DNA from: a virus
Strand: one strand, 5' to 3'
Length of the DNA: 64,000 nt
Virus record (IMG/VR): IMGVR_UViG_3300051212_000550
The position numbers were made by a program, and so were the translations under genes. Positions 15,709 through 63,728 of the stretch are shown here, piece by piece. The notes under the pieces are model-generated. The model was given only the letters and a program-made list of their open reading frames with translations. It did not search any database and was not told the DNA's origin. Within the stretch, counting starts at the first letter, position 1, and each line of letters starts with the position of its first letter.

Positions 15709-16185
15709 TTATTTATTAGCTAATGGATTATCAATTGCTTCTTTGATCTTACGATCCATTTCTTTACGCAATTCGCGTACATCTTTCTCAGTTTCTCGCT
15801 GGCTCAGTTTGGCTGTACGCTCCACGTCTTCTACAACTTTCTCTAATCTGCGTACATCAGTTTTAATATCGTTTTTGATATCCCTGGTGTAATCACCGCT
15901 TTTAGATGCTTGATCTTCCAGTACGCTCAAACGCTTGTCAAATTCTGATAAATCGGGTGCTACATATTTGGCTATTTTTTCCTTCATATCTTGATAGCCC
16001 TTGTATACTTCAAAAGCTCCATAAAGCCCACCGAGAACTGATGAAATGATACCGCCCGCGATCATTAACTTGGCTGGTGTGAAAGAATATCCACCAATGC
16101 TGATTACTGTGTTAGCACTGAGATACTTTTCTTTTGCCTCCGCTAGATCATCTACTGCTTTGTTTAAGTCTTTTTCTTCGCTCAC
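15709..16185 (-). CDS. single-pass membrane coiled-coil protein, tandem paralog A
   Basis: about 80% identical over the N-terminal 75 aa to the next gene; TM GGYSFTPAKLMIAGGIISSVLGGLYGAF. Confidence 0.6.
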   Translation of the reverse strand: MSEEKDLNKAVDDLAEAKEKYLSANTVISIGGYSFTPAKLMIAGGIISSVLGGLYGAFEVYKGYQDMKEKIAKYVAPDLSEFDKRLSVLEDQASKSGDYTRDIKNDIKTDVRRLEKVVEDVERTAKLSQRETEKDVRELRKEMDRKIKEAIDNPLANK

Positions 16186-16197
16186 TTGCTCCTCTCC

Positions 16198-16812
16198 TTA
16201 GTTAGACAGTGGATTGTCTAACGCTTTTTTAATTTTTGCATCAACTTCTGATCTTAAAGCACGAATCTCTGCTTGTATTTCTTTTTGATTTCTCGCCATC
16301 TCTTGATTATTACGAGTTATCTCTTGATTGATCTCTTTAACAGTTTGATCACTATATCTTCTAGTTTCTTTAAGAGTTTGGTCAACATCTCTCTTGATCT
16401 CCTTAACCGTCATATCAGTGTCTCTACTTGTTGTTTTGCTTGAACGCTCAACATTTTCTACAACACCTTCTAATCTACGTACATCGTTCTTGAGATCATT
16501 CTTAATAGCGTCGCTGTATTCTACAGTTTTATTTGTGCTAGCTTCAAGAACTTCTAATTTCTTATAAATTTCAGTTAGGTCTGGACTAACATATTTGGCT
16601 ATTTTTTCCTTCATATCCATATAATCTTTATAGACTTCGAATGCGCCGTAGAGTCCTCCTAAGACTGAAGAAACAATTGTTGCTGCTATCATTAGCTTGG
16701 CCGGTGTAAATGCATACCCACCAATACTAATTACAGTATTTTCACTTAGATATTTTTCTTTAGCCGCTTCTAAATCATCGACTGCTTTGTTTAAATCTTT
16801 TTCTTCGCTCAT
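16198..16812 (-). CDS. single-pass membrane coiled-coil protein, tandem paralog B (extra heptad repeats)
   Basis: ORF track 16198..16848; start moved to MSEEKDL to match its paralog. Confidence 0.6.
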   Translation of the reverse strand: MSEEKDLNKAVDDLEAAKEKYLSENTVISIGGYAFTPAKLMIAATIVSSVLGGLYGAFEVYKDYMDMKEKIAKYVSPDLTEIYKKLEVLEASTNKTVEYSDAIKNDLKNDVRRLEGVVENVERSSKTTSRDTDMTVKEIKRDVDQTLKETRRYSDQTVKEINQEITRNNQEMARNQKEIQAEIRALRSEVDAKIKKALDNPLSN

Positions 16813-16952
16813 TTTATTTTGTTCCTTTCCAAAAACCCCAAGGGTCATGTATTTTCTTTTCTACTTTCTTAGGTTCTTTGCAGTACCAAACAGCTACCGA
16901 TATCAGCACTAGTATTTCTAAAAGATAAAAAACCATAAATGCTTCGAACATA

Positions 16953-19259
16953 TTATTGTCCTATTTGATATTGTTGTTCTACCATACGCTGATGTAGAAC
17001 ATCACTAGCACCATTTAGGAAACGCTGTGCTCTAGCGTTATCAACTGTTCTTTGTCCTTTGTATATTTCTTTGCTAGAATAAAATTGTGCATCTTTCAAC
17101 TGTGAATTTAAGTATTGATTAAAATCTAATGGTGCTCTAGCTAATACTGCTGGATCAGGACCACCCTCCATACCTTCGACGGTGCCCCCTCTTCTTACTG
17201 CTGGGCCTGCCTTCTGATTTGATTCTTGCACAGACTGTGGAGGTGCTGTTAATAAATTGATATTATCTGTAGATCCTGCGTTTTTTTGAGTTGTTGTTTT
17301 GCCTTCATCTTTTTTATCGTTGTTATTTTCATCCGACATACCTTGAGTTCTATTAGTCTGAAGACTTAGACCAGATCCTAAAGTTATTCCGGTACCGTCG
17401 TTAGGACCTACACTGGCCTGGCTCATCATCACCGCTTGCTCTGCTGTGGCTAATGCTGTTTTTTCTGTGGCTGCTACAGCGGCCATTGCTACAGCTAATG
17501 CTCTAGGATCAACTTTCTTCTTTTCAGTTTCTTTTGTTTCTGTTTTAGTTTCTTCTGCCTTGGCGGATTCTTTAATTGCTTCTTTGGTTGCAGTGGGTTG
17601 ACCAGTAGGAATACTGATCTGTCCACTAGTGTTTAATTCAACTCCGCCAACATCTGTAGTAACCACAGTTTCAGTTCTAGTTGGATCTGCCAGTGCTACC
17701 GTTGGGGAAGAAGCTGTGGCAGTAGGACTAGAACTAGATGTTGTTGTAGAAGCGGTCGTAGTGGTAGGTTCACTGGCAGCTTGCGTCTGTGCTGCTAACT
17801 GATCTTGTAGATCTTTCTGCAATTTAGCCTGTGTATATCCCGGACACTGTGTACTATACAATTGATTTATTTCGCACTGTGCAGCTAGAAACGCTGTCTG
17901 ATAATTAGGACAGGCTTTGTCATAAAGTCCATTTATACTGCATTGCTGATTGAAATATGCCGCGGCATAACCAGGACAACCGCTGTCATATAAAGCATTG
18001 ACCGAACATTGTTGATCGTAATAGGCCTGTGCATATCCAGGACATTGATTGTTGTACAAAGGATTTAATGAACACTGTTGATCAAAATATGCCTGCTGGT
18101 ATCCGGTACAGCTGGTGCTGAATAAAGGATTTAACACACATTGATCTGGAGTATACTGTATCCTTGACCACATATTTGTCAATCCGGCATAATCCCAAGT
18201 TTGTCCGCTGAATTCAAAATTACCTAAACTTAGACTATTTCTGCTCTGTGGCAAAGTATAAGAATAACTATGACTCTGCCAATAATTGTGATCATTGTAA
18301 TCTCTAGTTGATGAGTATAAACTGTTTCCTGCAGAATCTCTGATATTAACCCAGGTGCGTACCAACGGGTCTCTGTTATCTGTGCATATTCCTAAAAAGC
18401 TGCTAGCACAATAAGGATTACCACTGAAAGTATCATAACCCCACTGGAATCCATGAACTTGAACTCCTAGCCCACCGTGTTGTAATGCCGTAGAAATAGC
18501 AAATGTCTGATTCAACGATTGTCCCCATGCAGCGTATCCCCCAGGATTAGGTACGAGATTTCCCGACGTTACTATGTCGTTGAAACCAGGACAGTTTGCA
18601 GAATACAGTGGATTTGCCACGCAGGGATCTACCGTGTAAGCAAATCTTACATATGAATCTCTCACAGCAGGTCCGTAGTATCCTGCCCAGAATCGTCCGT
18701 CCTTGCCTGTAAATGAGAGCGTAGCACTGCCTAGTGTAGATGATAGAGCAGAATTCAACGGCATGGTATTGGCAAAATTAGTCCAACCTGCGGTAGTGGT
18801 ACCATGTTGTGTAGTGATTGAATTTAGTAAAGATCCACTGCTATTAGTGATGCTTAGAGTAGACGATAACGATCCACTGTTATCTCCTTGATTATAATAT
18901 TGGAATCCGTAATTAATGCCGCTGACCTGTATTCCTGTGCCAGATAACGCTCTGTTCACAGGCACAGTTTGAGATACAGTAGCATAGCCATAGGAGAACC
19001 AAATATTGCCTGTGCCTGTTGGATCTAATAATGCCCCAGGACCACCTGCGCAACAACCTACAAAATTTCTAGGATTTTCGCCACCGTAATTAGCGGTATT
19101 CTGTTGTCCAGTCCATCCGCTAGAGGTAATGATATTACCGGTCTCCATTATAGGAAGACCGGTAGTTGGATCTATAGTTCCGGCTACTTGTGCGTTAGAA
19201 TAGTGCGAAAAGCAAAGCAGCAAGCAGAGCGCCGAAGCCAGTCTTCTTATAGAAATCAT
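16953..19259 (-). CDS. large secreted protein with six tandem 19-aa repeats (QQCSxNxLYxxxCPGYxxAY) and a Ser/Thr-rich linker
   Basis: ORF track 16953..19331; start moved to signal-peptide Met MISIRRLASALCLLLC; 57-nt DNA periodicity at 17829..18140. Confidence 0.6.
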   Translation of the reverse strand: MISIRRLASALCLLLCFSHYSNAQVAGTIDPTTGLPIMETGNIITSSGWTGQQNTANYGGENPRNFVGCCAGGPGALLDPTGTGNIWFSYGYATVSQTVPVNRALSGTGIQVSGINYGFQYYNQGDNSGSLSSTLSITNSSGSLLNSITTQHGTTTAGWTNFANTMPLNSALSSTLGSATLSFTGKDGRFWAGYYGPAVRDSYVRFAYTVDPCVANPLYSANCPGFNDIVTSGNLVPNPGGYAAWGQSLNQTFAISTALQHGGLGVQVHGFQWGYDTFSGNPYCASSFLGICTDNRDPLVRTWVNIRDSAGNSLYSSTRDYNDHNYWQSHSYSYTLPQSRNSLSLGNFEFSGQTWDYAGLTNMWSRIQYTPDQCVLNPLFSTSCTGYQQAYFDQQCSLNPLYNNQCPGYAQAYYDQQCSVNALYDSGCPGYAAAYFNQQCSINGLYDKACPNYQTAFLAAQCEINQLYSTQCPGYTQAKLQKDLQDQLAAQTQAASEPTTTTASTTTSSSSPTATASSPTVALADPTRTETVVTTDVGGVELNTSGQISIPTGQPTATKEAIKESAKAEETKTETKETEKKKVDPRALAVAMAAVAATEKTALATAEQAVMMSQASVGPNDGTGITLGSGLSLQTNRTQGMSDENNNDKKDEGKTTTQKNAGSTDNINLLTAPPQSVQESNQKAGPAVRRGGTVEGMEGGPDPAVLARAPLDFNQYLNSQLKDAQFYSSKEIYKGQRTVDNARAQRFLNGASDVLHQRMVEQQYQIGQ
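17829..18140 (-). repeat. 57-bp tandem repeat x6 (coding; CxxNxLY...CPGY units)
   Basis: visible periodicity in DNA and protein. Confidence 0.6.
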
Positions 19260-20025
19260 CGCCTTTTGGTTCCTCAGATTTTGGCCATTTGTCTGGATTA
19301 GCATTCCAAGCAACTCTAGCCTGTTCCCCAATCACACCCTCATACGGACATGGAGTTCCTGCATTCCACATAGCATCAAATACTCTACGATCTTGACACA
19401 TCACAGAAACTGCTGCTACTTTCATTCCCATGTCATAGAGTGTTTTAGCATTCTTTAATCTTTCGCAGTTCATATCACGAACTGTGCCGCCACTGCTGAC
19501 ACCTAAGATCTGTGTTTGAACAGCACCACTAGTTCCTGTAGTACAAAGATCGTTATTACCGCCGCTCATCATAGCAGGTGCTATGGCAGTTGGTGGAGGT
19601 TGAATAACTTTTTGTGTAATGTTGCTGTCGTTGATATTACGGTTTGTCATGTCTCCACTGTTAATGTTTTGATTGACATTATTATTTTGATTTGTACTGG
19701 TACTGGTACTGGTGTTTACATTAGTATTATTATTGGTATTGACGTTTTCCGAAGTTGTGTGACCACTATTAATGTTTGTGTTAGTACTTGTGCTTGTACT
19801 GGTATTTTGATTTATGTTTGTGTTAGTACTGGTGCTGTTCACTGTACTTGTGTTGACGTTGTTATTTGTGTTCGTACTAGTACTGTTAACTGTACTTGTA
19901 GAAGTACTATTGTTATTTGTATCTACTAGGCTCGAACTGTCATAGGTAGTCTGAGCATAGGCTTGGCCAGAACCCCAAAACATAGCAGCCATTATAAAGG
20001 CATACTTATAACTATTTTTTATCAT
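19195..20025 (-). CDS. secreted Ser/Thr/Asn low-complexity repeat protein with Cys-rich C-domain and hydrophobic C-terminal anchor
   Basis: signal peptide; (NTSTSTNTN)n repeats; C-terminus GFGALLAALLFALF. Confidence 0.55.
   Translation of the reverse strand: MIKNSYKYAFIMAAMFWGSGQAYAQTTYDSSSLVDTNNNSTSTSTVNSTSTNTNNNVNTSTVNSTSTNTNINQNTSTSTSTNTNINSGHTTSENVNTNNNTNVNTSTSTSTNQNNNVNQNINSGDMTNRNINDSNITQKVIQPPPTAIAPAMMSGGNNDLCTTGTSGAVQTQILGVSSGGTVRDMNCERLKNAKTLYDMGMKVAAVSVMCQDRRVFDAMWNAGTPCPYEGVIGEQARVAWNANPDKWPKSEEPKGDDFYKKTGFGALLAALLFALF
19690..19900 (-). repeat. degenerate ~48-bp tandem repeats encoding the STSTNTN tracts
   Basis: repeated gttagtac/gtactggt motifs. Confidence 0.5.
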
Positions 20026-20118: not shown

Positions 20119-20334
20119 TTAATTGATTGATACCGACTTAGGATGGCCAAACAATCTTATAGCCGAGGTTGCTTTACGATCAAATCCACTACCACTTTTA
20201 TCATATTGAGGTAAAAACCATTGGCCATTGCGATCCTGACGCATACCAATTTCCCGGGCGGCATTGACATCAGTTACATTGAAGTAATGAAGCTTGACTA
20301 GTTTAGGTTTAGATTCAATTTCTGTAAAGCGCAT
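20119..20334 (-). CDS. hypothetical small protein
   Basis: ORF track. Confidence 0.45.
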   Translation of the reverse strand: MRFTEIESKPKLVKLHYFNVTDVNAAREIGMRQDRNGQWFLPQYDKSGSGFDRKATSAIRLFGHPKSVSIN

Positions 20335-20341
20335 TAAGTAT

Positions 20342-21037
20342 TTAGTTTATTTCTGGGAATAAACAATGCTCAATAAACACTTTTACATCATCCTCATTTA
20401 AACCTAAGCTGGTCATAACACGTGGTGTATGTGGATTTTGTTTTTGATTCTGAGCATAGAAATTCTGCTCAACCGTGGCGTCTGCTACCTTGTTGTTAGT
20501 TTCGCCCACAGTTTCTAAATAATGATTAACAAGGATACGTGCTAGGCTTTCAATCTGATTAAGTTCGTCATCCTCTTGAACATTACCGGCTGCGACCATA
20601 TGCGGACTAAAGATACGTTGTGCCCACTCGGGTAATTCTCGTTTGCGTATCCATTCGTATCTAGATACTTCCTCGGCGAAATATTTTATCATAGGATGTT
20701 CACGATCTGTAGTGGGACTATAGTCTATGAAACATCCGGTAATTTTGTTTTTACCTGCTATGACATCAAAACCAAAAATAGGTGCCGGGTTATGGATATG
20801 TGGAAAGACACAGCAATGCATCATCCAGAGGCCCTTTGTGGATCGGGCATCGACTACATCGATATGGGCTCTGCGATAATTACCGCTGGTCCAAACACGA
20901 TTAACCCAACCCGGCTGATTGAATCTTTCCATTCCAGGTTCAAAAGTTTCTATTCCAGTATTGGAAAAACTTTTTTCAAGTAGTTCTTGAATACCAATGA
21001 GTTTATACCAAACTTTACTGTTCAATGTTTTGTCCAT
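20342..21037 (-). CDS. ferredoxin-dependent bilin reductase (PcyA/PebS/PcyX family)
   Basis: FDBR-family similarity by recognition; two residues downstream of heme oxygenase in the same operon. Confidence 0.7.
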   Translation of the reverse strand: MDKTLNSKVWYKLIGIQELLEKSFSNTGIETFEPGMERFNQPGWVNRVWTSGNYRRAHIDVVDARSTKGLWMMHCCVFPHIHNPAPIFGFDVIAGKNKITGCFIDYSPTTDREHPMIKYFAEEVSRYEWIRKRELPEWAQRIFSPHMVAAGNVQEDDELNQIESLARILVNHYLETVGETNNKVADATVEQNFYAQNQKQNPHTPRVMTSLGLNEDDVKVFIEHCLFPEIN

Positions 21038-21509
21038 TTTCGTCTACCTCTACCCAGGTATAATCACCCAACCACTTTACTCTAGTTATGTAATTATAAT
21101 CGTCCGGTGATCCTGTGCTCCAGTCATCGGGTCCGTGCTGAGTCAACAGTGTATGATTTTTTCTTGTGTTATAAACTAACCAATAACACTGACCGTGAGC
21201 TATTTGAAATTGATAAACTGCGGAGTGTACCATATCAGTTATATCAAGACGTCGTTTAATACTTGCTGCCTGCTTTTGTAAAACAGCAACCAGTTCCATG
21301 ATCCTGTTATATTCTTGTTGCCCGTGCATACGAGCAACATTGACCATAATGTCCTTTTGTTTTTCTACAGGAATTAAATCAAAAACAGGGCCTCCTACTT
21401 CTGTGGGATACGGAGTTACATTGCGATTGATAAACTGGACTAAAGAATCACCTATCTGAGAATCGAAGCTATCTTTTCCTTTTGAAAGATTACTCTTCTG
21501 ATCCTTCAT
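21015..21509 (-). CDS. hypothetical protein between HO and bilin reductase
   Basis: ORF track. Confidence 0.5.
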   Translation of the reverse strand: MKDQKSNLSKGKDSFDSQIGDSLVQFINRNVTPYPTEVGGPVFDLIPVEKQKDIMVNVARMHGQQEYNRIMELVAVLQKQAASIKRRLDITDMVHSAVYQFQIAHGQCYWLVYNTRKNHTLLTQHGPDDWSTGSPDDYNYITRVKWLGDYTWVEVDENGQNIEQ

Positions 21510-22044
21510 ATAATTCTTTCATCATTTTAATCGCCCACTCAAATGCTACTCTAGCCTCATCTCCTAAGTCGTCAGTTAGCTCAGAACGAATAGAAACTTT
21601 AAGGTCTTCCGGATTCTTAAAATCGTAGAAGCGACCTTTCGAAATATGTGCTACCTGCTTCTTGATGATCTGTCCACCATGTAAGTCTCCCATATGACGA
21701 CAATAAAGATGTGCTTTGATCTTAGGACGTTGTGTAGGATCGCGGACTAAACCTAACAGATAATTGTAGTATTCTATCGTTTCTGGTAACCACTTGTAAT
21801 TATGATCCACTCCTGCTATCTCAATAAAGTCTTGATAGATAGCGTGTGTTCTTTCTAAGCCGGGAAGATTTTTAAAATTGCCTTCTACTCGATTACCTAA
21901 TTCAATTGCATTATATACCAATACTAATTGATAAAGATAATTTGCATAGTCTTCTTTAGTAATCTTACCGCTAAGAAGCAATTTGGCGAATTGTGTTTTT
22001 TCTGCCTCGTGATGTAGGTCTTTGGTAATTTCTTTTAAACTCAT
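21490..22044 (-). CDS. heme oxygenase (HO-1 family)
   Basis: proximal His region HHEAEKTQF and YCRHMGDLHGGQ (canonical Y-x-R-Y-x-GDLSGGQ). Confidence 0.8.
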   Translation of the reverse strand: MSLKEITKDLHHEAEKTQFAKLLLSGKITKEDYANYLYQLVLVYNAIELGNRVEGNFKNLPGLERTHAIYQDFIEIAGVDHNYKWLPETIEYYNYLLGLVRDPTQRPKIKAHLYCRHMGDLHGGQIIKKQVAHISKGRFYDFKNPEDLKVSIRSELTDDLGDEARVAFEWAIKMMKELYEGSEE

Positions 22045-22313: not shown

Positions 22314-22622
22314 TTAAACGTCTTCTTCTATAGTGATTTGTAATGGGTGGCCGTTCTGTCTACAGAGATTTGTTGCATCGATGGCTTTTTGTTCTGCAAT
22401 TTCATGAATATATAAACCAACTACAGCACTGCCTGTATTATGAATTTCCATTGTTATCTGTTCGGCAGATTCTTCGCTGTGTCTAAAAATCGTAACCAAA
22501 AGAGCAATTACAAATTCCATTGGAGTATAATCATCATTTAAAAACAATACCTTCCATTTATTAGGAGGTAGTGCCTCAACGGTCTTTGTTACTTCTTTGA
22601 TTTTGGTATCTACGGCTGTCAT
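22314..22622 (-). CDS. clpS: ATP-dependent Clp protease adaptor ClpS
   Basis: strong similarity to ClpS (KVLFLNDDYTPMEFVIALL..). Confidence 0.85.
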   Translation of the reverse strand: MTAVDTKIKEVTKTVEALPPNKWKVLFLNDDYTPMEFVIALLVTIFRHSEESAEQITMEIHNTGSAVVGLYIHEIAEQKAIDATNLCRQNGHPLQITIEEDV

Positions 22623-23200: not shown

Positions 23201-25111
23201 TTAGGATGTCTTTCCCTCGGTTTCAGTAAAGGAAGCATCAATCACTTCACCATCTGCTGGCTGCTTTTCGCTTTCTGATTTAGCAGCTTCACGTTTGGCT
23301 TTAATCTTTTCAAATAGAGGCTTAGCAGCATCTGCTACATTAAAAGGACCTTTCTTGATTTCTTCGAGGTCTTTGCTGTCGTTGGCTAACTTTTCGGCTT
23401 CAGTTAATGCATCTTCAATAGCCTTCCATTCTTCTTCTGTGGCGAGATCCTTTTCAGCTTCTAGTTCCTTGCGGATAGTGTAAAGTTCTGAAAGAGCACT
23501 ATTACGTCCTTCAATAACTTCACGTGCCTTTTTATCTTCTTCAGCAAATTGTTCTGCTTCAGAAATCATACGTTTGATTTCATCTTCGCTGATACCACTA
23601 TTTGCCTTAATGGTAATCTTGTTTTCTTTGCCTGTGTTCTTGTCCTTGGCACTTACACTTAAGATGCCGTTGGCGTCGATGTCAAAGGTGACTTCAATCT
23701 GTGGCATTCCACGAGGTGCCGGATCAATACCTTCTAGATTAAATTCACCTAACAATTTATTGTGATGTGCAAGTTCACGTTCTCCTTGGAACACACGGAT
23801 AGTAACAGCTGGTTGATTATCTTCGGCTGTACTGAAGATTTGTGTTGCCTTTGTAGGAATAGTAGTGTTCTTGTTAACCAACTTAGCCATAATGCCGCCC
23901 ATTGTTTCAATACCTAATGTCAATGGTGTAACATCTAGCAACAGAACGTCTTTGCGATCGCCAGCAAGAACTGCTCCTTGAATAGCTGCTCCAACAGCAA
24001 CAGCCTCGTCTGGGTTAACATCACGGCGTGGTGCTTTACCAAATAGTTTTTCAACTTCTTCTTGTACCTTAGGCATACGTGTCTGTCCGCCGACGAGAAT
24101 AACTTCGTCAATATCGGCAGCAGTAACACCTGCATCCTTCATAGCAATGCGGCATGGCTCTAATGAACGCTTAACCAGATCATCAACTAATGCTTCTAAT
24201 TTTGCTTTAGTTAGTTTAACAACCAAATGCTTAGGACCACTTGCATCAGCAGTGATGTAAGGAAGGTTGACTTCTGTTTGAGTAGAACTCGATAATTCAA
24301 TCTTAGCTTTTTCAGCAGAATCTTTTAAACGCTGTAAGGCCAACATGTCTTTGGTTAGATCGATTCCCTGTTCTTTCTTAAATTCTTCAACAAGGTAATC
24401 CATGATACGCTGGTCGAAGTCTTCACCGCCTAGGAATGTATCACCGTTAGTAGAAAGAACTTCAATTTGCTTGTCGCCATCTACATTAGCGATTTCAATA
24501 ATGCTTACATCAAATGTACCACCACCTAAGTCGTACACAGCAATCTTACGATCTGCTTTTTCTTGCTTGTCCACTCCATAAGCTAGTGCTGCGGCAGTAG
24601 GTTCGTTGATAATACGTAGAACTTCTAATCCAGCAATCTGTCCTGCATCTTTAGTAGCCTGGCGTTGGCTATCATTAAAATAAGCAGGAACTGTAATAAC
24701 TGCTTGAGTAACTTCATGGCCTAAATAATCTTCGGCAGTCTTCTTCATCTTGCGAAGAACTTCTGCAGAGACCTGCGGAGGAGCCATTTCTTTACCTTGG
24801 GCACGAATCCATGCATCACCATTCTTTGCCTTGGTAATTTCATAAGGCATCAGGTCGATGTCTTTTTGTACAGCTTCTTCGTTGAACTTACGTCCAATCA
24901 ACCGCTTGGCTGCATAAATTGTATTTTTTGGATTTGTTACTGCCTGACGCTTTGCACTTGCACCAACCAAGATATCGCTGTCTGTATAAGCAACAATACT
25001 TGGGGTTGTACGTGCGCCTTCTGAATTTTCGATTACTTTCGAAACGCCGTTTTCAATAACGGCTACACATGAGTTTGTGGTACCCAAATCGATACCGATG
25101 ATTTTTGACAT
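23201..25111 (-). CDS. dnaK: molecular chaperone DnaK (Hsp70)
   Basis: full-length Hsp70 ([16 protein letters not shown] etc.). Confidence 0.95.
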
Positions 25112-25192: not shown

Positions 25193-26212
25193 TTATCTCA
25201 CGAATACATCATTAAATTGCTTATTGACTCGAATAAATGTTGTACATTTTGATAGTTGTTTAAGACTTGGCGCTCCAACGTATGTGCAAGAGCTGCGTAA
25301 TCCACCCAAAATATCCAAAATTGTATCCTTAATAGGACCGCGATATGGAACTTGAACTGTTCTTCCTTCGCTACTACGATATTCTGCTACACCACCATGA
25401 TGTTTATTCATAGCAGTATCTGAACTCATTCCGTAGAATGTAATTTTTCCATCTTTAATTTCTCCGCCCCCTTCATCGTGTCCTGCTAGCATACCGCCTA
25501 GCATTACAAAGTCAGCTCCCGCGCCAAACGCTTTGGCAACATCACCAGGACAAGTACATCCACCGTCAGCAATAATATGACCGCCAAGACCGTGAGCGGC
25601 GTCGGCACATTCAATAATAGCACTAAGCTGTGGGTACCCAACACCAGTTTGAATACGAGTAGTACAAACACTACCAGGACCAATCCCAACTTTAACAATA
25701 TCCGCACCACGTAAAATTAACTCCTGTGTCATGTCCGCAGTAACAACATTGCCTGCGATGATTGTTTTATCTGGATAGGTCGTTCTAACTTTAGAAACAA
25801 ATTCTCCAAAATGTTCACTGTATCCGTTGGCTACATCGATACAAATAAAATGTATTCTCGGATAAGAATTGATTGTTTGCCTTAGTTTTAAAAAATCTTT
25901 ATCACTAGTGCCAGTGCTGACAGCAAAATAATCACTGCCAATATCTTCTATAGTCGTCTGTAGATATAATGTATCAATGTTCTTAACTAAACAGGTAAAC
26001 ATTCGGTGCTGATACAATTCAATGGCCATATGTAATGTACCAACACCGTCCATGTTCGATGCCATGATCGGAACACCCGACCATTCGAATTTACTGTGTT
26101 TAAATTTATATGTCCGGGTTAGGTCTACTTCTTTACGACTTGATAATGTGCTACGCTTAGGACGGATTAAGACATCTTTAAAATCTAACTTAACTTCGTC
26201 TTCGATTCTCAT
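25193..26212 (-). CDS. guaC: GMP reductase
   Basis: N-terminus [23 protein letters not shown] close to E. coli GuaC; no CBS insert. Confidence 0.85.
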
Positions 26213-26790
26213 CGGGAATCCTTTAGGGGAGAAAGTAATTGACCATCAAAGGTCGATGAAGTCCGTAGTCTACGGAAAACATTTTGTACTCCAATAGCTT
26301 GATTATATGCATCATGAAGTGCATGGTGCGCTAAGACCTCTGGACGATCTGGATTGATGCCAAGATCAAAAATTGTTCTGGTATCGCGCACCTGCCAGAA
26401 ACTCCACGGATAGCCTTTGCCGATCTTACGGAATACTGTTTCTAGAATAACAACATCAAAGCCAGCACCATGACTCCATACACGTTTACATCCCCAACAG
26501 AATTTATACAGTTGATTCATCGCATCAACGATGTCTACTCTGTTCTCTGTTCCGAATGCTTCGTCTTGTGCTTCTTTGCTTTGTTTTGCCCACCATTCGA
26601 GTGTATCTTGCGAAGTGACCAATCCCAGTCTATCACAACTGTCAATGTCTATTCGCAGATAAAAACTTTCCATTGCAGGTTCTTTGAGATCCTGACCAAA
26701 CGGATCAAATTTTACTGCACCAATACTTAGGATAGCTGCATCCGGGGTAGTGGCAAGTGTTTCAAGGTCAATCATAATATCTGAATTCAT
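26209..26790 (-). CDS. DEDD-family 3'-5' exonuclease (DnaQ-like)
   Basis: Exo I IDLET, HxAxxD motif HHALHDAYN. Confidence 0.7.
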
Positions 26791-26821: not shown

Positions 26822-27061
26822 TCAATATAATTTTGGTGGAAGTTTTTGATCACGTAATTTTTTCTGCCAACGTGCTTTGGCTGCTGATTTCTTACGCTTT
26901 CTTTCAGTGGTGGGCTTTTCGTAAAATTCTTTTTTACGCAATGTTTCGAGGGTACCAGCTTCTTCTACTTTCTTTTTAAAACGTTTTAAGGCACGGTTAA
27001 TATCTTCGCCTTCTTTAAGTACTACTGTATTACCGGAAGGTTTATGTGTAAATTTGTTCAT
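26822..27061 (-). CDS. rpsU: 30S ribosomal protein S21
   Basis: ALKRFKKKVEEAGTLETLRKKEFYEKPTTERKRKKSAA aligns with bacterial S21. Confidence 0.9.
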   Translation of the reverse strand: MNKFTHKPSGNTVVLKEGEDINRALKRFKKKVEEAGTLETLRKKEFYEKPTTERKRKKSAAKARWQKKLRDQKLPPKLY

Positions 27062-35404: not shown

Positions 35405-35911
35405 TTAACTGTTCAATACCTTAGCAACACTATTCATTACTGCGGCAATGCGTCCAATGTCACGTAGTTGCTCAACAGTATAGCCTTCAGTCTTTAGTGT
35501 GTCATAGTGTGCCTTAACGCAGAAGTGACACTTGCCAACAATACTTGCGGCAAGACTAAACGCTTCAAAGTTTGCCTTGGTAGTTCCGCCATGACTTGCG
35601 ATTGCATTCATACGTAACTGTGCTGGCAATCCTTTAAGTTGTTCATCATCTGCCATTTCAACATATGGATACCATACATTGTTTTGTGCCATGATGCTTG
35701 CGGCAGTCATTGCGGCATCTGCATGAACAGGTGCATCAGCTAACATAACAGCAAGTACTTTACCGTTACCAGTTGCGGCGAGTGCGGCTACAGCACAACC
35801 CATAGCCACATCAGCATCTAATGTGCTACGCAAAAGGACAGCGTCCAAGTTTAACTTGGTGTCCTTTGCGTATTCTGGCAACGCATCTTTGATAGCGTCA
35901 CTGAATGCCAT
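35405..35911 (-). CDS. ahpD: AhpD-like alkylhydroperoxidase (carboxymuconolactone decarboxylase family)
   Basis: CxxC-H motif [10 protein letters not shown]. Confidence 0.7.
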
Positions 35912-36444
35912 TATAGTGTCTCCCCGCCTACTGCACGGTTACAAGCACAAAGTTCGCCAGTTTGTAGCGCATCAAGAACACGTAGAGTTTCTTCTGGGCT
36001 ACGACCAACGTTCAAGTTGTTGACAGTAACGTGTTGAATAACGTTCTCTGGGTCAACAATAAATGTTGCGCGAAGTGCTGCGCCTGCTGGAGAATAGAAT
36101 ACGCCTAACTGATTGATTAGGCTTAGGTCGCCACGTTGTGTGTCTGCGAATTGTGTATGTGTAATCTTTGCCAAGTCTGGGTGTGCCTTTTGCCATGCTA
36201 GTTTACAGAACTCGTTGTCTGTTGAACCTGTAAGCAATACAGCATCGCGGTCTTTGAAATCGCCTGTGAGCTTATCATAAGCAACAATTTCTGTTGGACA
36301 TACAAATGTAAAGTCCTTTGGATAGTAAACGATGACTTTCCACTTGCCTGCGAAAGATTCGTCAGTAATGTCAAAGAATTGATCACTACCTGGATTAACA
36401 CCTGTTACGGCAAACTTTTCAATTTTATCACCAACTGTTTTCAT
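35911..36444 (-). CDS. ahpC: peroxiredoxin (AhpC/TSA family)
   Basis: peroxidatic-Cys motif FTFVCPTE; start moved to MKTVGDK (SD AAGGAG, -10 TATAAT at 36501..36506). Confidence 0.8.
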   Translation of the reverse strand: MKTVGDKIEKFAVTGVNPGSDQFFDITDESFAGKWKVIVYYPKDFTFVCPTEIVAYDKLTGDFKDRDAVLLTGSTDNEFCKLAWQKAHPDLAKITHTQFADTQRGDLSLINQLGVFYSPAGAALRATFIVDPENVIQHVTVNNLNVGRSPEETLRVLDALQTGELCACNRAVGGETL

Positions 36445-36593
36445 ATCATTCTCCTTTGTGTGTGTTGAAAACTTAATAGGACTCTTCGTCCTGTACAAAT
36501 ATTATACATTTAATTATCCTATTAATCTAGAATTTTAATAGGTTTTTTTATTGTATTTTTTTATAAGCATCATTGAATAAACCAATAACGATT

Positions 36594-36625: not shown

Positions 36626-36995
36626 TGGGTGAGAAGGTATAGTTACCCCCGACTTGCAGTTTCTTAGGCTGCTAGTGCAACACGACCACCAACGGTGTTA
36701 CCGTTGAAGCTCATTGCTGCGAAGTCAAATGCATCATCGTTTGCATTTATAGTTTTGCTTGATTTACGGTCATCGCCTACCGTGTTGCCGTCTCTACTAT
36801 CTACCCCTGTCGAAACCATAACTGGCCCATTAGGGAGAACACTACTTGCTATGCCGGCCACTATCACTTACCGCGGAGTTGTGCGCCTTCCAGCTCCTTC
36901 TGCAATGTTCTCTCTGGTGGACCAGGCGGGAGTCGAACCCGCGTCCAGAAGTCCTTCGCTTTGAAGGGATTACAACAATTCTTTATTCGTAAGGT
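36626..36995 (-). ncRNA. ssrA: circularly permuted (two-piece) tmRNA gene, ssrA
   Basis: upstream piece ends GGACGCGGGUUCGACUCCCGCCUGGUCCACCA (E. coli tmRNA 3' end differs at only 5 positions); 86 nt downstream the 5' acceptor strand GGGCCAG (G3.U70 Ala identity, A73) is followed by UUAUGGUUUCGACAGGGG (tmRNA D-analog UUCGAC); resume codon GCA at 36744 opens the tag frame ANDDAFDFAAMSFNGNTVGGRVALAA-UAA (to 36664); a terminator follows. The 5' boundary is approximate. Confidence 0.75.
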
Positions 36996-37193
36996 TTTAA
37001 AAAGTCGTCGTCTTTTGAATCTTCTTCAAACTTAGTCCAATCATAGGTTACCAAGGCATGAATCCATGCACCGATACAATAGACAAGTAAAAGTAATATT
37101 AAAAAGCCACCCATGTTAATGTAACAACAATAATGATCACAACAATTAAAAATCCAACTAGAAATCTGGTTAAGTCGTCATTTATAAAAGTAT

Positions 37194-51602: not shown

Positions 51603-51630
51603 AAGCCCCCGGAAGGGGGCTTTCTGTTAT
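51603..51630. terminator. bidirectional intrinsic terminator (AGCCCCC-ggaa-GGGGGCU) between convergent genes
   Basis: seen directly. Confidence 0.8.
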
Positions 51631-52328
51631 CTAACTTTGGCTAATTTAAAAAACTGTAGGATCTTGATATACATCCAGCCTATATCAAATTCCCATTTGC
51701 GTTGACGGAAGTCAGCTGATGCGCCATTGGCGTGATGGTTGTTATGTAGTTCTTCGCCGCCGATCCAGAATGCCCATGGCCAAAGATTACGACTAGTATC
51801 TTTAGTATCTGTATTGCGGTAACCCCACCAGTGGCAAAGACCGTTAACTACTCCTGCTGCCCAAAATGGAATCCACAGCATCTGAACACCCCAGACCACA
51901 AATCCCACAGGGCCAAAAAGAACAAGATCTATGATCAACATTAAAAGAATCCCTAGGCGACTGTGCGGAGTGTATAACTTTTCTTCAATCCAATCGTCGG
52001 GAGTTCCAACACCCAATTCTTGAATTAGTATTTTGTTTTTTGCTGCTTTTGCATACAAGAACGCACCACCAAATAGCACACGCCAAATACCATAGACCTG
52101 AGGGCTATGTGGATCTTTTTCTGTATCTGATGCTTGGTGATGTTTACGATGTATAGCTACCCATTCTCGAGTAACCATTCCTGTTGTAAGCCATAACCAA
52201 AAACGCATGAAGTGTGCGACTATAGGATGGAATTGAACTGCGCGATGTGCTTGGCTACGATGTAGATAAAGTGTAACGCAAGCGATAGTGATTTGTACCA
52301 TCACCAAGGTATAGATGATTATTAACAT
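51627..52328 (-). CDS. membrane fatty-acid desaturase (DesC/delta-9-like; His boxes HRSQAH, HRKHH, HNNHH)
   Basis: three His-box motifs. Confidence 0.7.
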   Translation of the reverse strand: MLIIIYTLVMVQITIACVTLYLHRSQAHRAVQFHPIVAHFMRFWLWLTTGMVTREWVAIHRKHHQASDTEKDPHSPQVYGIWRVLFGGAFLYAKAAKNKILIQELGVGTPDDWIEEKLYTPHSRLGILLMLIIDLVLFGPVGFVVWGVQMLWIPFWAAGVVNGLCHWWGYRNTDTKDTSRNLWPWAFWIGGEELHNNHHANGASADFRQRKWEFDIGWMYIKILQFFKLAKVR

Positions 52329-52984
52329 TAATAGTTCCCTGAGGCTAGAACTATTTTACAGATGTGTTCTAAACGCTCAATGTGCTCGAAGGATCTCCAA
52401 GGTGTAGAATCTATAGCAACAACTCCATGTCCTTTAATGCCTACGATATCGTACTTAATCTCTCCGGTTTTAGAATTTAAACCCAACTTTTCGTGACATT
52501 GATCTCCCAATTCTTGACTTATTGGGGGGACATCGCCCACATTAGGTGCTACACGAGTATATCTGCTAAGTTCTGGAAAGTGACTAGCCAATTCTGAAAG
52601 CTCTATACCGGCATGCATAGCTGCTACAATATAAGTGGGATGAATATGTGTTACTACACGTACTTCGTCTTTATGTATTTCTCGCTGTAGACCAAAATGC
52701 AGAGGCATTTCACCTGTAGGTTTAAGCCCTACACTTATATCACTATAGGGCATTTCTTCCCATCCATAAATCATTTCTGCTGTACCAGCACCACTATTAA
52801 TAGCTCTATTGATTTTGATTTTTTTAAATTGATCGGGTTGTAAAGTTTGCTTACGAACCCCCGACGGAGTTACATAAAAATGATCTCTATCGTGATGACG
52901 AATAGAGATATTACCATCCCTGCTGGTAATCCAATTACGATTGTAAGCTTCGACTAAAATATCACAAATTGTTTCTAACATCAA
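52328..52984 (-). CDS. class II aldolase/adducin-domain protein (FucA/AraD-like)
   Basis: motifs GNISIRH and HIHPTY. Confidence 0.65.
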   Translation of the reverse strand: MMLETICDILVEAYNRNWITSRDGNISIRHHDRDHFYVTPSGVRKQTLQPDQFKKIKINRAINSGAGTAEMIYGWEEMPYSDISVGLKPTGEMPLHFGLQREIHKDEVRVVTHIHPTYIVAAMHAGIELSELASHFPELSRYTRVAPNVGDVPPISQELGDQCHEKLGLNSKTGEIKYDIVGIKGHGVVAIDSTPWRSFEHIERLEHICKIVLASGNY

Positions 52985-57478: not shown

Positions 57479-57997
57479 TTATTTCTTAGCAGTCTTGGCA
57501 GCATCCTTCCATGCTTGATCGGTAGGTGCTTTAGGATGATTTTTATCTCTGCTGGTACCTGCTTTCTTACGTTTATTTACGTAGTAGTAAAGACCTTTTT
57601 TTGTCGCTTCGTGCATTCCGAAGTTACCTTGCATACGAACTTGTTCTATATCATTTTTTTCAGCATAAGTATCAACCATCATAGCTAACTGAAAGTCCAA
57701 TATTGTTAATCCCTTTACATCGAATGTAGAAGTTTTAACAGTCACTTCAGCAACATCTTGTGTAACTTCTGCAAAATGATCCATCTTTTCAGATAATCGA
57801 TTTATAAACTCTACGAATTTGACAGCGTGTCTATGATCTTTAGCAACATATTTGGCCTGTAGATACTTATGATCTAACATTTCCCAATCTGGCAAATACT
57901 CTGATTTTAAATCGTCAAGGTCTTTATCTGAAGGTACGAAATCTTCTATATCTTTTGATCTAAATTTGCCTTCGATTATTATTTCTTTGACTCTCAT
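57479..57997 (-). CDS. hypothetical basic protein
   Basis: ORF track. Confidence 0.5.
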   Translation of the reverse strand: MRVKEIIIEGKFRSKDIEDFVPSDKDLDDLKSEYLPDWEMLDHKYLQAKYVAKDHRHAVKFVEFINRLSEKMDHFAEVTQDVAEVTVKTSTFDVKGLTILDFQLAMMVDTYAEKNDIEQVRMQGNFGMHEATKKGLYYYVNKRKKAGTSRDKNHPKAPTDQAWKDAAKTAKK

Positions 57998-60443: not shown

Positions 60444-61634
60444 ATGATCAACAAAGAACCATTCAAACATCTAATCAAAGACCTCAAAGATACAGGAAAA
60501 TACCGTGTGTTTAACGATATTGTGCGTGAGCGAGGGCAATTTCCTAAAGCTATTTGGTACGGACCTTATAATATTAAAACTATAGTTAATTGGTGTTCAA
60601 ACGATTATTTGGGAATGGGACAAAATAAAGTAGTCCTTGATGCTATGCACACAGCATTAGATCAAACTGGTGCGGGATCAGGCGGCACCCGTAACATTGG
60701 TGGTACCAGTCATTATCACGTAGCATTAGAACACGAGCTTGCTATGCTGCATAACAAGAGCAAAGCACTGTTGTTCAGCAGCGCCTATGTTGCTAACGAA
60801 TGGACTATTATCGCTCTAAGTAAAATCATAGACAATATACAGTTTATTTCGGACAGTAAAAATCATAACAGTCTGATTGTTGGTATACAACATTCGAAGG
60901 CACCAAAGCAGATATTCGAACACAATAATTTAAATGATCTAGAAGATAAACTAGCACAGAGCAAACTTGCAGGATTTACTCCTTGCATAGTTTTTGAATC
61001 AGTTTACAGTATGGATGGTGATGTTAGCCCAATTAAAGATATCTGTGATCTCGCAGATCGTTATCAGGCAATAACATACATTGACGAAGTACATGCGGTA
61101 GGGCTCTACGGGACGCACGGTGGCGGAAAAGTAGAAGAATTTGGTTTAGAATCCCGAGTTGATATAATCAACGGTACGTTAGGGAAAGCCTTTGGAGTCC
61201 AAGGTGGCTATGTTGCTGCCGATGCTGATGTTGTTGATGCCATCCGTTCTGTAGCTGCTGGCTTTATCTTTACAACATCAATGAGTCCTGTGGCCTGTGC
61301 TGGAGCACTGGCTGCGGTTAAATGGCTTAAAGATCACAACGAAGTTCGGGTCAAGCATCAAGAACGTGCTGCTAAACTAAAGCAACTATTAAAAGAAAAT
61401 GAGCTGCCTGTTATGGACAGCTCAACTCATATAGTTCCAGTTCTAGTAGGGGATGCTAAGAGATGTAAATCAATGAGTGACAAACTGTTAGAGGATCACA
61501 ACATCTATGTACAACCAATTAACTATCCTACTGTTGACGTAGGTACTGAGCGGTTGCGCTTTGCTCCTACTCCATACCATGATGACTCTATGATGAGCAA
61601 TTTAATATCTGCTCTCAAGGACGTTTTTCAATGA
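60444..61634 (+). CDS. hemA: 5-aminolevulinate synthase (glycine + succinyl-CoA, C4 pathway)
   Basis: [47 protein letters not shown] and PLP-Lys [12 protein letters not shown] match ALAS rather than BioF/Kbl. Confidence 0.75.
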
Positions 61635-63212: not shown

Positions 63213-63728
63213 ATGTCAGATACTTTGATTTTAAATGCAGACGCTCAACCGGTTAGCCTGTTGCCGTTGTCTACTTGCGACTGGCAAGAAGCTATCAGAT
63301 ACATGGTTTTGGAAAAAGCCCGTGTATTGGAATGGCACGATGATTGGATCGTGCGTTCTGCAAGATGGGAAACAAGAGTTCCCGCAGTATTACTACTGAA
63401 CGAGTATTACAAAAAGAAACATATTGTTCGTTTAACCAAACGGAATGTGTTCTTGCGTGATCGCTATGTCTGTCAGTACTGTGGCACTGATGTCAATGAA
63501 CAAACAGCAACGCTGGACCACGTTCATCCGCTCAGTCACGGTGGTAAGAACTCTTGGCTAAACTTAACTACGGCCTGCAAACCTTGCAACTATCGCAAGG
63601 CTGCACATGTAGGCAAGCACAAACCTAAGACTACTCCGTACAAGCCGGATTACTGGGAATTGGCTGAGAAGCGACGCCAAAAGGGTTTCCATCTAAGACA
63701 CCCAAGTTGGGAACACTACCTGCTGTAA
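63213..63728 (+). CDS. HNH endonuclease
   Basis: CQYCG...DHVHPLSHGG...CKPCN. Confidence 0.8.
   Translation: MSDTLILNADAQPVSLLPLSTCDWQEAIRYMVLEKARVLEWHDDWIVRSARWETRVPAVLLLNEYYKKKHIVRLTKRNVFLRDRYVCQYCGTDVNEQTATLDHVHPLSHGGKNSWLNLTTACKPCNYRKAAHVGKHKPKTTPYKPDYWELAEKRRQKGFHLRHPSWEHYLL

Follow-up and report, generated by a model that had tools for sequence, protein, structure and literature searches.

Genes for a haem oxygenase and for a bilin reductase of the ferredoxin-dependent type (FDBR) are carried by cyanophages and also by phages of non-photosynthetic bacteria. Their role in the latter has been called 'enigmatic', with iron supply and haem balance discussed as the purpose of the module (PMC11480375). 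In the 'broken cassette' described for aquatic phages, hemO and pcyA or pcyX lie together while valaS, the gene for 5-aminolevulinate synthase, lies apart (PMC11480375). PcyX differs from PcyA by a residue pattern in which Glu76 is replaced by Asp, His88 and Asp105 are kept, and Asp220 is replaced by Pro (PMC13446030 Table 2); Asp55 of PcyX has also been remarked on (PMC11480375). We analysed a stretch of 64,000 nucleotides (nt) of IMG/VR virus record IMGVR_UViG_3300051212_000550, referred to here as the window, with positions counted along its whole length. The window contains a haem oxygenase gene and an FDBR gene, and we conclude with a probability of roughly 0.8 that these genes form an auxiliary metabolic module, of the kind already described (hemO-pcyX plus valaS), in a large phage that is uncultivated. 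The known picture of the pathway is left unchanged by the window, which provides a clear example from a large and abundant uncultivated clade whose IMG/VR contigs number in the hundreds and whose protein clusters number in the thousands.

Identification of the haem oxygenase and the bilin reductase

The haem oxygenase and FDBR genes share a strand and are separated only by an open reading frame (ORF) of 164 amino acids (aa).

21490-22044 (-): hemO, haem oxygenase (vHemO), 184 aa; Pfam PF01126 (Heme_oxygenase), 80.9 bits
21015-21509 (-): DUF2452-family protein, 164 aa, between hemO and pcyX; Pfam PF10504, 27.5 bits
20342-21037 (-): pcyX, predicted PcyX-type ferredoxin-dependent bilin reductase, 231 aa; Pfam PF05996 (Fe_bilin_red), 59.1 bits

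The Pfam cut-offs are 23 bits for the haem oxygenase family and 31 bits for the bilin reductase family. In the Protein Data Bank (PDB), the haem oxygenase matched HmuO (1IW0, E = 7.9e-11). His11 of the window protein aligned with an HmuO residue to which the offset of the alignment gives the number His20, and the stretch GDLHGGQ aligned with GDLSGGQ of HmuO. We take the His11 position to be the proximal haem ligand and GDLxGGQ to be the glycine motif of the distal helix. The FDBR matched phrog_7278 in PHROGs (E = 9.7e-22). When it was searched against the PDB, PcyX (5OWG) was found at 243 bits (E = 2.3e-71) whereas the best PcyA reached 60.6 bits (E = 1.6e-15), and no PebS, PebA, PebB or HY2 chain was recovered at E<=1.

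An earlier reading of the letters alone, hereafter the sequence-only reading, had recognized a haem oxygenase paired with an FDBR and had staked that identification on the catalytic Asp and His residues. Both residues are retained, as His74 and Asp91 of the window protein align with His88 and Asp105 of PcyA, and the Pfam, PDB and residue evidence together support the pairing. The four diagnostic positions are as follows.

PcyA Glu76: Asp60 in the window, Asp in published PcyX
PcyA His88: His74 in the window, His in published PcyX
PcyA Asp105: Asp91 in the window, Asp in published PcyX
PcyA Asp220: Pro202 in the window, Pro in published PcyX

Asp60, His74, Asp91 and Pro202 were invariant across 124 aligned PcyX-lineage sequences, and the PcyA reference was the sole row that differed at positions 60 and 202. 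The window FDBR was 49.5% identical to PcyX_EBK42635, 48% identical to PcyX of Pelagibacter phage Mosig in the alignment (47% by tblastn) and 29.6% identical to Synechocystis PcyA.

We considered the alternative of a genuine PcyA with phycocyanobilin as its product, as is the case in freshwater phage CB_2. Two observations that favour this alternative also count against assignment to PcyX: identity to characterised PcyX stays below 50%, and the CB_2 FDBR, which belongs to the same wider clade, proved to be a true PcyA, showing that the AX clade can include PcyA (PMC11480375). However, the CB_2 enzyme lacks the PcyX Asp, whereas the window FDBR has it. The PcyA equivalog was the best NCBIfam model for the window protein, and source annotations call its relatives phycocyanobilin:ferredoxin oxidoreductase, but the equivalog (NF002760) scored 94.1 bits, far under its cut-off of 206 bits. 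Moreover, the PcyA-defining Glu76 and Asp220 are replaced in exactly the PcyX pattern (PMC13446030 Table 2), and the PDB scores differ widely in the same direction. A true PcyA is therefore unlikely. From these comparisons we assign the reductase to the PcyX lineage, and its predicted product is most likely phycoerythrobilin. The 5OWG match and the four diagnostic residues also agree with the PcyX type of phages with non-photosynthetic hosts, one of the two kinds of pair that the sequence-only reading had named.

A third tetrapyrrole gene in a broken cassette

The window contains a further tetrapyrrole gene 38 kb from hemO-pcyX, together with a clpP gene.

60444-61634 (+): 5-aminolevulinate synthase (vAlaS), the third tetrapyrrole gene; NCBIfam TIGR01821
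61615-62232 (-): ClpP homologue; NCBIfam NF001368

The vAlaS protein scored 570 bits against a TIGR01821 cut-off of 338.6 and matched the PDB 5-aminolevulinate synthase 7X98 with E = 1e-127. ClpP scored 318.5 bits against an NF001368 cut-off of 249. Because valaS is not contiguous with hemO-pcyX, the window represents the 'broken' form of the hemO/pcyX/valaS cassette. We found 90 viral relatives of valaS and five contigs with both valaS and the FDBR cassette; in one contig (L286) valaS directly adjoins FDBR-HO, HO being the haem oxygenase gene. The clpP gene is convergent with valaS, the 3′ ends overlapping by 20 nt, and when 80 related viral loci were compared, clpP was found 0.4-3.8 kb from valaS in 48. 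The 5-aminolevulinate synthase at 60444-61634 had been overlooked in the first reading of the sequence. We also observed an ORF of 171 aa with an HNH domain at 63213-63728 (+), which resembles the HNH of IscB and Cas9d and is kept near valaS and clpP in relatives; a homing endonuclease of the free-standing HNH type is the probable identity.

Conservation of clpS-hemO-pcyX downstream from chaperone genes

The genes and elements that flank the cassette are listed in order of decreasing coordinate, which is the direction of transcription.

25193-26212 (-): GMP-reductase-like gene; ORF listing
23201-25111 (-): dnaK; Pfam HSP70, 845 bits
22673-23107 (-): hsp20; Pfam HSP20, 58.7 bits
22645-22664 (-): G5/C5 hairpin between hsp20 and clpS; minimum free energy -17.5 kcal/mol, z -2.5
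22314-22622 (-): clpS, homologue of the ClpS adaptor, opening the tight string that runs to the 71-aa ORF; Pfam PF02617, 98.5 bits
22055-22312 (-): 85-aa ORF between clpS and hemO; no family match
20119-20334 (-): 71-aa ORFan directly 3′ of pcyX; no family match

The sequence-only reading had described eight co-directional, tightly spaced ORFs from dnaK to the 71-aa ORF. All eight are on the minus strand in the ORF listing, and the named genes clear the Pfam gathering scores and the PHROGs thresholds by a wide margin. The tight spacing is confined to the portion from clpS to the 71-aa ORF, in which the successive spacers are 1, 10, -20, -23 and 7 nt, giving a tight unit of 2.5 kb. The dnaK and hsp20 genes are separated by 93 nt, and hsp20 and clpS by 50 nt that hold a hairpin with the sequence GGGGGAAG-GGAA-CTTCCCCC and without a clear U-tract. 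Because of the 93-nt gap and the hairpin-bearing 50-nt gap, a single dnaK-to-FDBR transcript cannot be claimed. Of 55 distinct intergenic regions from relatives, about 45 keep a G4-5...C4-5 hairpin, the stem and loop sequences varying, and it is possible that this element acts as a weak terminator or an RNA-stability element. A candidate internal promoter at 22695-22667, with a 12/12 match to the sigma-70 consensus, was rejected: its -35 hexamer lies within conserved C-terminal codons of hsp20, the match was found in only 16 of the 55 relatives, and promoter-like sites were not enriched relative to shuffled sequences.

We then compared the 80 best related FDBR loci, all on viral contigs in IMG/VR. 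The cassette was preceded by hsp20 in 73 of these loci and by dnaK in 70, so that placement of the bilin genes after dnaK-hsp20-clpS, originally described as embedding in a chaperone operon, is conserved synteny in about 70 of the 80. When 60 distinct related cassettes were compared, clpS was upstream of hemO in 55; the two genes abut in 36 of these 55, and a gap of about 270 nt separates them in 12. The hemO and pcyX genes abut in 76 of the 83 rows that carry both, a set in which Mosig is counted and some contigs appear more than once. From these data we conclude that the conserved unit of this phage clade is clpS-hemO-pcyX, located 3′ of dnaK-hsp20, and that within the clade the bilin genes are fixed beside clpS and the chaperone genes.

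The two small ORFs are distributed differently from this unit. Neither the 85-aa nor the 71-aa protein had a Pfam, PHROGs or NCBIfam match. Homologues of the 85-aa ORF were present in 16 of the 80 FDBR loci, and a clpS-hemO gap of corresponding size occurs in a minority of cassettes (the 12 of 55 mentioned above). In a collection of 5.8 billion proteins, the 71-aa family comprised 14 clusters as compared with 5,887 for the FDBR. Although the 71-aa ORF starts 7-14 nt after the FDBR gene in every contig examined, it occurred in only four of the 80 FDBR loci and in one sublineage. The suggestion that it is a conserved accessory component thus gives way to a narrower reading: within its sublineage this ORF is a downstream neighbour of pcyX, it is not a general component, and it may have a local role.

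Just upstream of the chaperone block we observed genes for a Rv2179c-like 3′-5′ exoribonuclease at 26209-26790 (-) and a bS21 ribosomal protein homologue (70 bits) at 26822-27061 (-). On the 3′ side of the cassette, 16953-20025 (-) encodes two secreted-looking low-complexity proteins, one of 276 aa that is rich in N, S and T and one of 792 aa in which C-P-G-Y motifs recur. Relatives carry homologues of the curli-secretion proteins CsgF and CsgG and a FecR-like gene at the same position (L162, 4342-6397; L203, 5304-6646), and these genes may point to a curli-like system carried by the phages.

The DUF2452 gene between hemO and pcyX

The 164-aa protein encoded between hemO and pcyX matched DUF2452 marginally, its 27.5 bits comparing with a Pfam cut-off of 25, and nearly all of its homologues carry a precomputed PF10504 assignment. 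Papers citing this family name it for eukaryotic C1orf50. The homologues formed 2,890 clusters that are mostly 70-80% identical, and the phage members differ from the Pfam family in being a large group at this level of identity with a highly variable genomic position. An AlphaFold model of the protein (pLDDT 86.7) shows a helix of 50 residues together with a small beta domain of four strands. The model matched the DUF2452 protein of giant virus ChoanoV1 in a BFVD fold search (E = 5.5e-6), and no fold match was found in the PDB. The conserved residues are largely aromatic (F101, Y109, W130 and W152), with no Cys or His among them. No match was obtained by tblastn among 50,697 phage records of GenBank.

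The sequence-only reading had also treated the 164-aa ORF as conserved in the cassette and as a candidate accessory component. The distribution of the gene does not bear this out. Among the 80 best FDBR loci, DUF2452 was found between the haem oxygenase and FDBR genes in two other distinct contigs (four rows). Conversely, of the 80 DUF2452 loci that ranked best in IMG/VR, 78 had neither a haem oxygenase nor an FDBR gene within 5 kb. The neighbours in these other loci are nrdA, nrdB and glutaredoxin genes, with DUF2452 sometimes between nrdA and nrdB and sometimes following nrdB-glutaredoxin, a clamp-loader ATPase gene with phoH, or a cell-wall hydrolase gene that precedes it; the clamp loader/PhoH context is the commonest. 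Overlaps with these unrelated neighbours are often as tight as those with hemO and pcyX in the window. In ribonucleotide reductase operons of relatives (L067, L078 and L079; L050-L059) we observed that DUF2452 has about 70-80% aa identity, above that of many flanking genes. The gene is very widespread and highly conserved among phages, and these features suggest that it is a mobile but strongly constrained small gene. A degenerate DNA pattern designed for genome-level co-occurrence of DUF2452 and FDBR returned 30 loci, which was too few for use.

The ribonucleotide reductase operon of the window is without DUF2452, whereas some relatives have it in that operon; the gene therefore looks relocated rather than added for the pathway. 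In the closest relative (L090-L092), aa identities to the window are 93% for DnaK, 94% for the 85-aa ORF, 90% for the haem oxygenase and 96% for the 276-aa ORF. For about 7 kb the window is collinear with L090, with 63-89% nt identity per 150-nt block, mostly 75-89%, and the sole indel between them is a clean one of about 484 nt that corresponds to the DUF2452 ORF. In another sublineage the hemO-pcyX slot contains a gene for S-adenosylhomocysteine hydrolase (AdoHcyase) of 428 aa (L096, L097 and L100, at about 3711-4997 in each). Thus the hemO-pcyX and clpS-hemO junctions are slots that take unrelated single genes, namely the 85-aa ORF, DUF2452 and S-adenosylhomocysteine hydrolase, and the DUF2452 gene of the window is a lineage-specific insertion and not a pathway component.

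Several observations weigh against this conclusion and would instead fit a model in which DUF2452, the 71-aa protein or both are functional pathway partners in this lineage, for example by binding bilin or haem, handing over substrate or docking the electron donor. DUF2452 is translationally coupled on both sides, with overlaps of 20 nt with hemO and 23 nt with pcyX, but equally tight coupling to nrdA/nrdB and clamp-loader genes is seen where haem oxygenase and FDBR are missing. The same slot is occupied in the two further contigs even though the haem oxygenase there is only 68% identical, whereas the closest relative lacks the gene. The largely aromatic nature of the conserved residues likewise favours partnership, but the protein has neither conserved Cys or His residues nor a known fold match. 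Similarly, the 71-aa ORF was never seen apart from pcyX, where it follows directly, but its family is minute in comparison with that of the FDBR. In addition, characterised PcyX and HemO function without such partners (PMC11480375). We consider pathway partnership very unlikely, although there may be some selective fit of DUF2452 to the hemO-pcyX position. Both tempting accessory candidates were removed as unsupported, and DUF2452 is better viewed as an inserted gene. An iron-related role, considered from its ribonucleotide reductase and haem oxygenase contexts, was judged weak on two grounds, the clamp loader/PhoH context being the commonest and conserved Cys or His residues being absent.

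Phage origin and probable host

The window contains genes for a virion structural protein (phrog_1645), a tail-spike-like protein, a baseplate/lysozyme protein and a class Ia ribonucleotide reductase, and 93 of its 101 ORFs are on one strand. The cassette is common to hundreds of IMG/VR contigs of up to 400 kb. Proteins identical to those of the window are encoded on a JGI contig of 72,942 bp. GenBank phage DNA was searched with the cassette and with a 25-kb block; the result was similarity at the level of dnaK or nothing, and no close isolated relative was found. When the FDBR was searched against one genome per species (185,579 bacterial and archaeal species), a single match was obtained, on an 8.9-kb contig binned with a Polynucleobacter metagenome-assembled genome (MAG). 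This contig has the gene order hsp20-clpS-HO-FDBR, as in the window.

The cellular look of dnaK, hsp20, clpS, clpP, the bS21 gene and a transfer-messenger RNA (tmRNA) gene, together with the relative binned in the Polynucleobacter MAG, raised the alternative that the region is a bacterial chaperone operon with a bilin island. However, this explanation conflicts with the virion structural, tail-spike-like and baseplate/lysozyme genes, the strand bias, the hundreds of viral contigs with the cassette and the recovery of only one FDBR match from so many cellular species. A bacterial origin is extremely improbable, and we conclude that the window is part of a large uncultivated phage.

The permuted two-piece tmRNA at 36664-37028 (-) has beta_tmRNA as its best Rfam match (145.9 bits). 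This match and the Polynucleobacter MAG bin indicate that the host is probably a betaproteobacterium; what weighs against the assignment is that its basis is a single RNA family and a single MAG. The tag peptide of the tmRNA is ANDDAFDFAAMSFNGNTVGGRVALAA.

Other features of the window

At 8387-8462 (-) lies the gene for a tRNA of the amber-suppressor type, its anticodon being CUA. The 101 ORFs end in TAA (64), TGA (35) or TAG (2), and no sign of splitting of genes by in-frame TAG was seen in the window. Four tandem ORFs of equal length (132 aa) at 419-817, 1072-1470, 2661-3059 and 3256-3654 (all -) are probable paralogues, and the one that was tested had no Pfam match. A paralogous pair of coiled-coil/transmembrane proteins is encoded at 15709-16185 and 16198-16848 (-). 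Auxiliary genes at 35405-36498, 51627-52984 and 57479-57997 (all -) encode an AhpC/TSA peroxiredoxin with an AhpD-like CMD protein, a fatty-acid desaturase, a class II aldolase and a pterin-4a-carbinolamine dehydratase.

Proposed function of the module

In our model, the haem oxygenase would open host haem to give biliverdin IXalpha, with release of Fe2+ and CO. The PcyX-type reductase would then draw four electrons from host ferredoxin and is predicted to convert biliverdin to phycoerythrobilin via 15,16-dihydrobiliverdin. A scan of the window for a ferredoxin-like cysteine pattern found none. The 5-aminolevulinate synthase encoded 38 kb away would feed tetrapyrrole synthesis. The phage might benefit from iron release and from keeping the haem levels of a non-photosynthetic host under control, as has been discussed (PMC11480375).

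Tetrapyrrole and Clp genes are paired across the clade: clpS abuts hemO in most cassettes, clpP is convergent to valaS, and DnaK, Hsp20 and tmRNA genes are nearby. This pairing could reflect functional coupling, in which phage ClpS and ClpP re-target host ClpA/ClpP proteolysis so as to take haem off host haemoproteins or tune the turnover of haem-synthesis enzymes, with HemO-PcyX then disposing of the haem. If so, the bilin genes would belong to a module for proteostasis and iron salvage rather than to a pigment pathway. We regard such coupling as quite unlikely.

Comparison with known systems

The closest described systems are the marine hemO-pcyX phages, represented by PcyX_EBK42635 (PDB 5OWG) and Pelagibacter phage Mosig EXVC030M. 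As in the window, an FDBR of the PcyX lineage comes after the haem oxygenase and has the identical diagnostic Asp/His/Asp/Pro residues, and the host is not a cyanobacterium. The window differs in that its reductase is only 48-50% identical to marine PcyX and in belonging to a clade of large phages, with contigs up to 400 kb, whose host is probably betaproteobacterial. In Mosig, the nearest isolated phage, hemO and pcyX are directly adjacent and the neighbours are genes for 2OG-Fe(II) oxygenases and ferrochelatase, whereas in the window DUF2452 lies between the two genes and the neighbours are clpS, hsp20 and dnaK.

The window also resembles the cassette of hemO, pcyA or pcyX, and valaS (PMC11480375) in having all three genes, with hemO and the FDBR gene together and valaS elsewhere; it departs from that cassette in that valaS is 38 kb away and convergent with clpP. 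With the cyanophages that carry pcyA or pebS with ho1, the window shares a phage-borne haem oxygenase and a four-electron FDBR. In contrast to those phages, nothing points to a cyanobacterial host, the search at E<=1 recovered no PebS, and the FDBR belongs to another lineage, with 22-32% identity to cyanophage PcyA.

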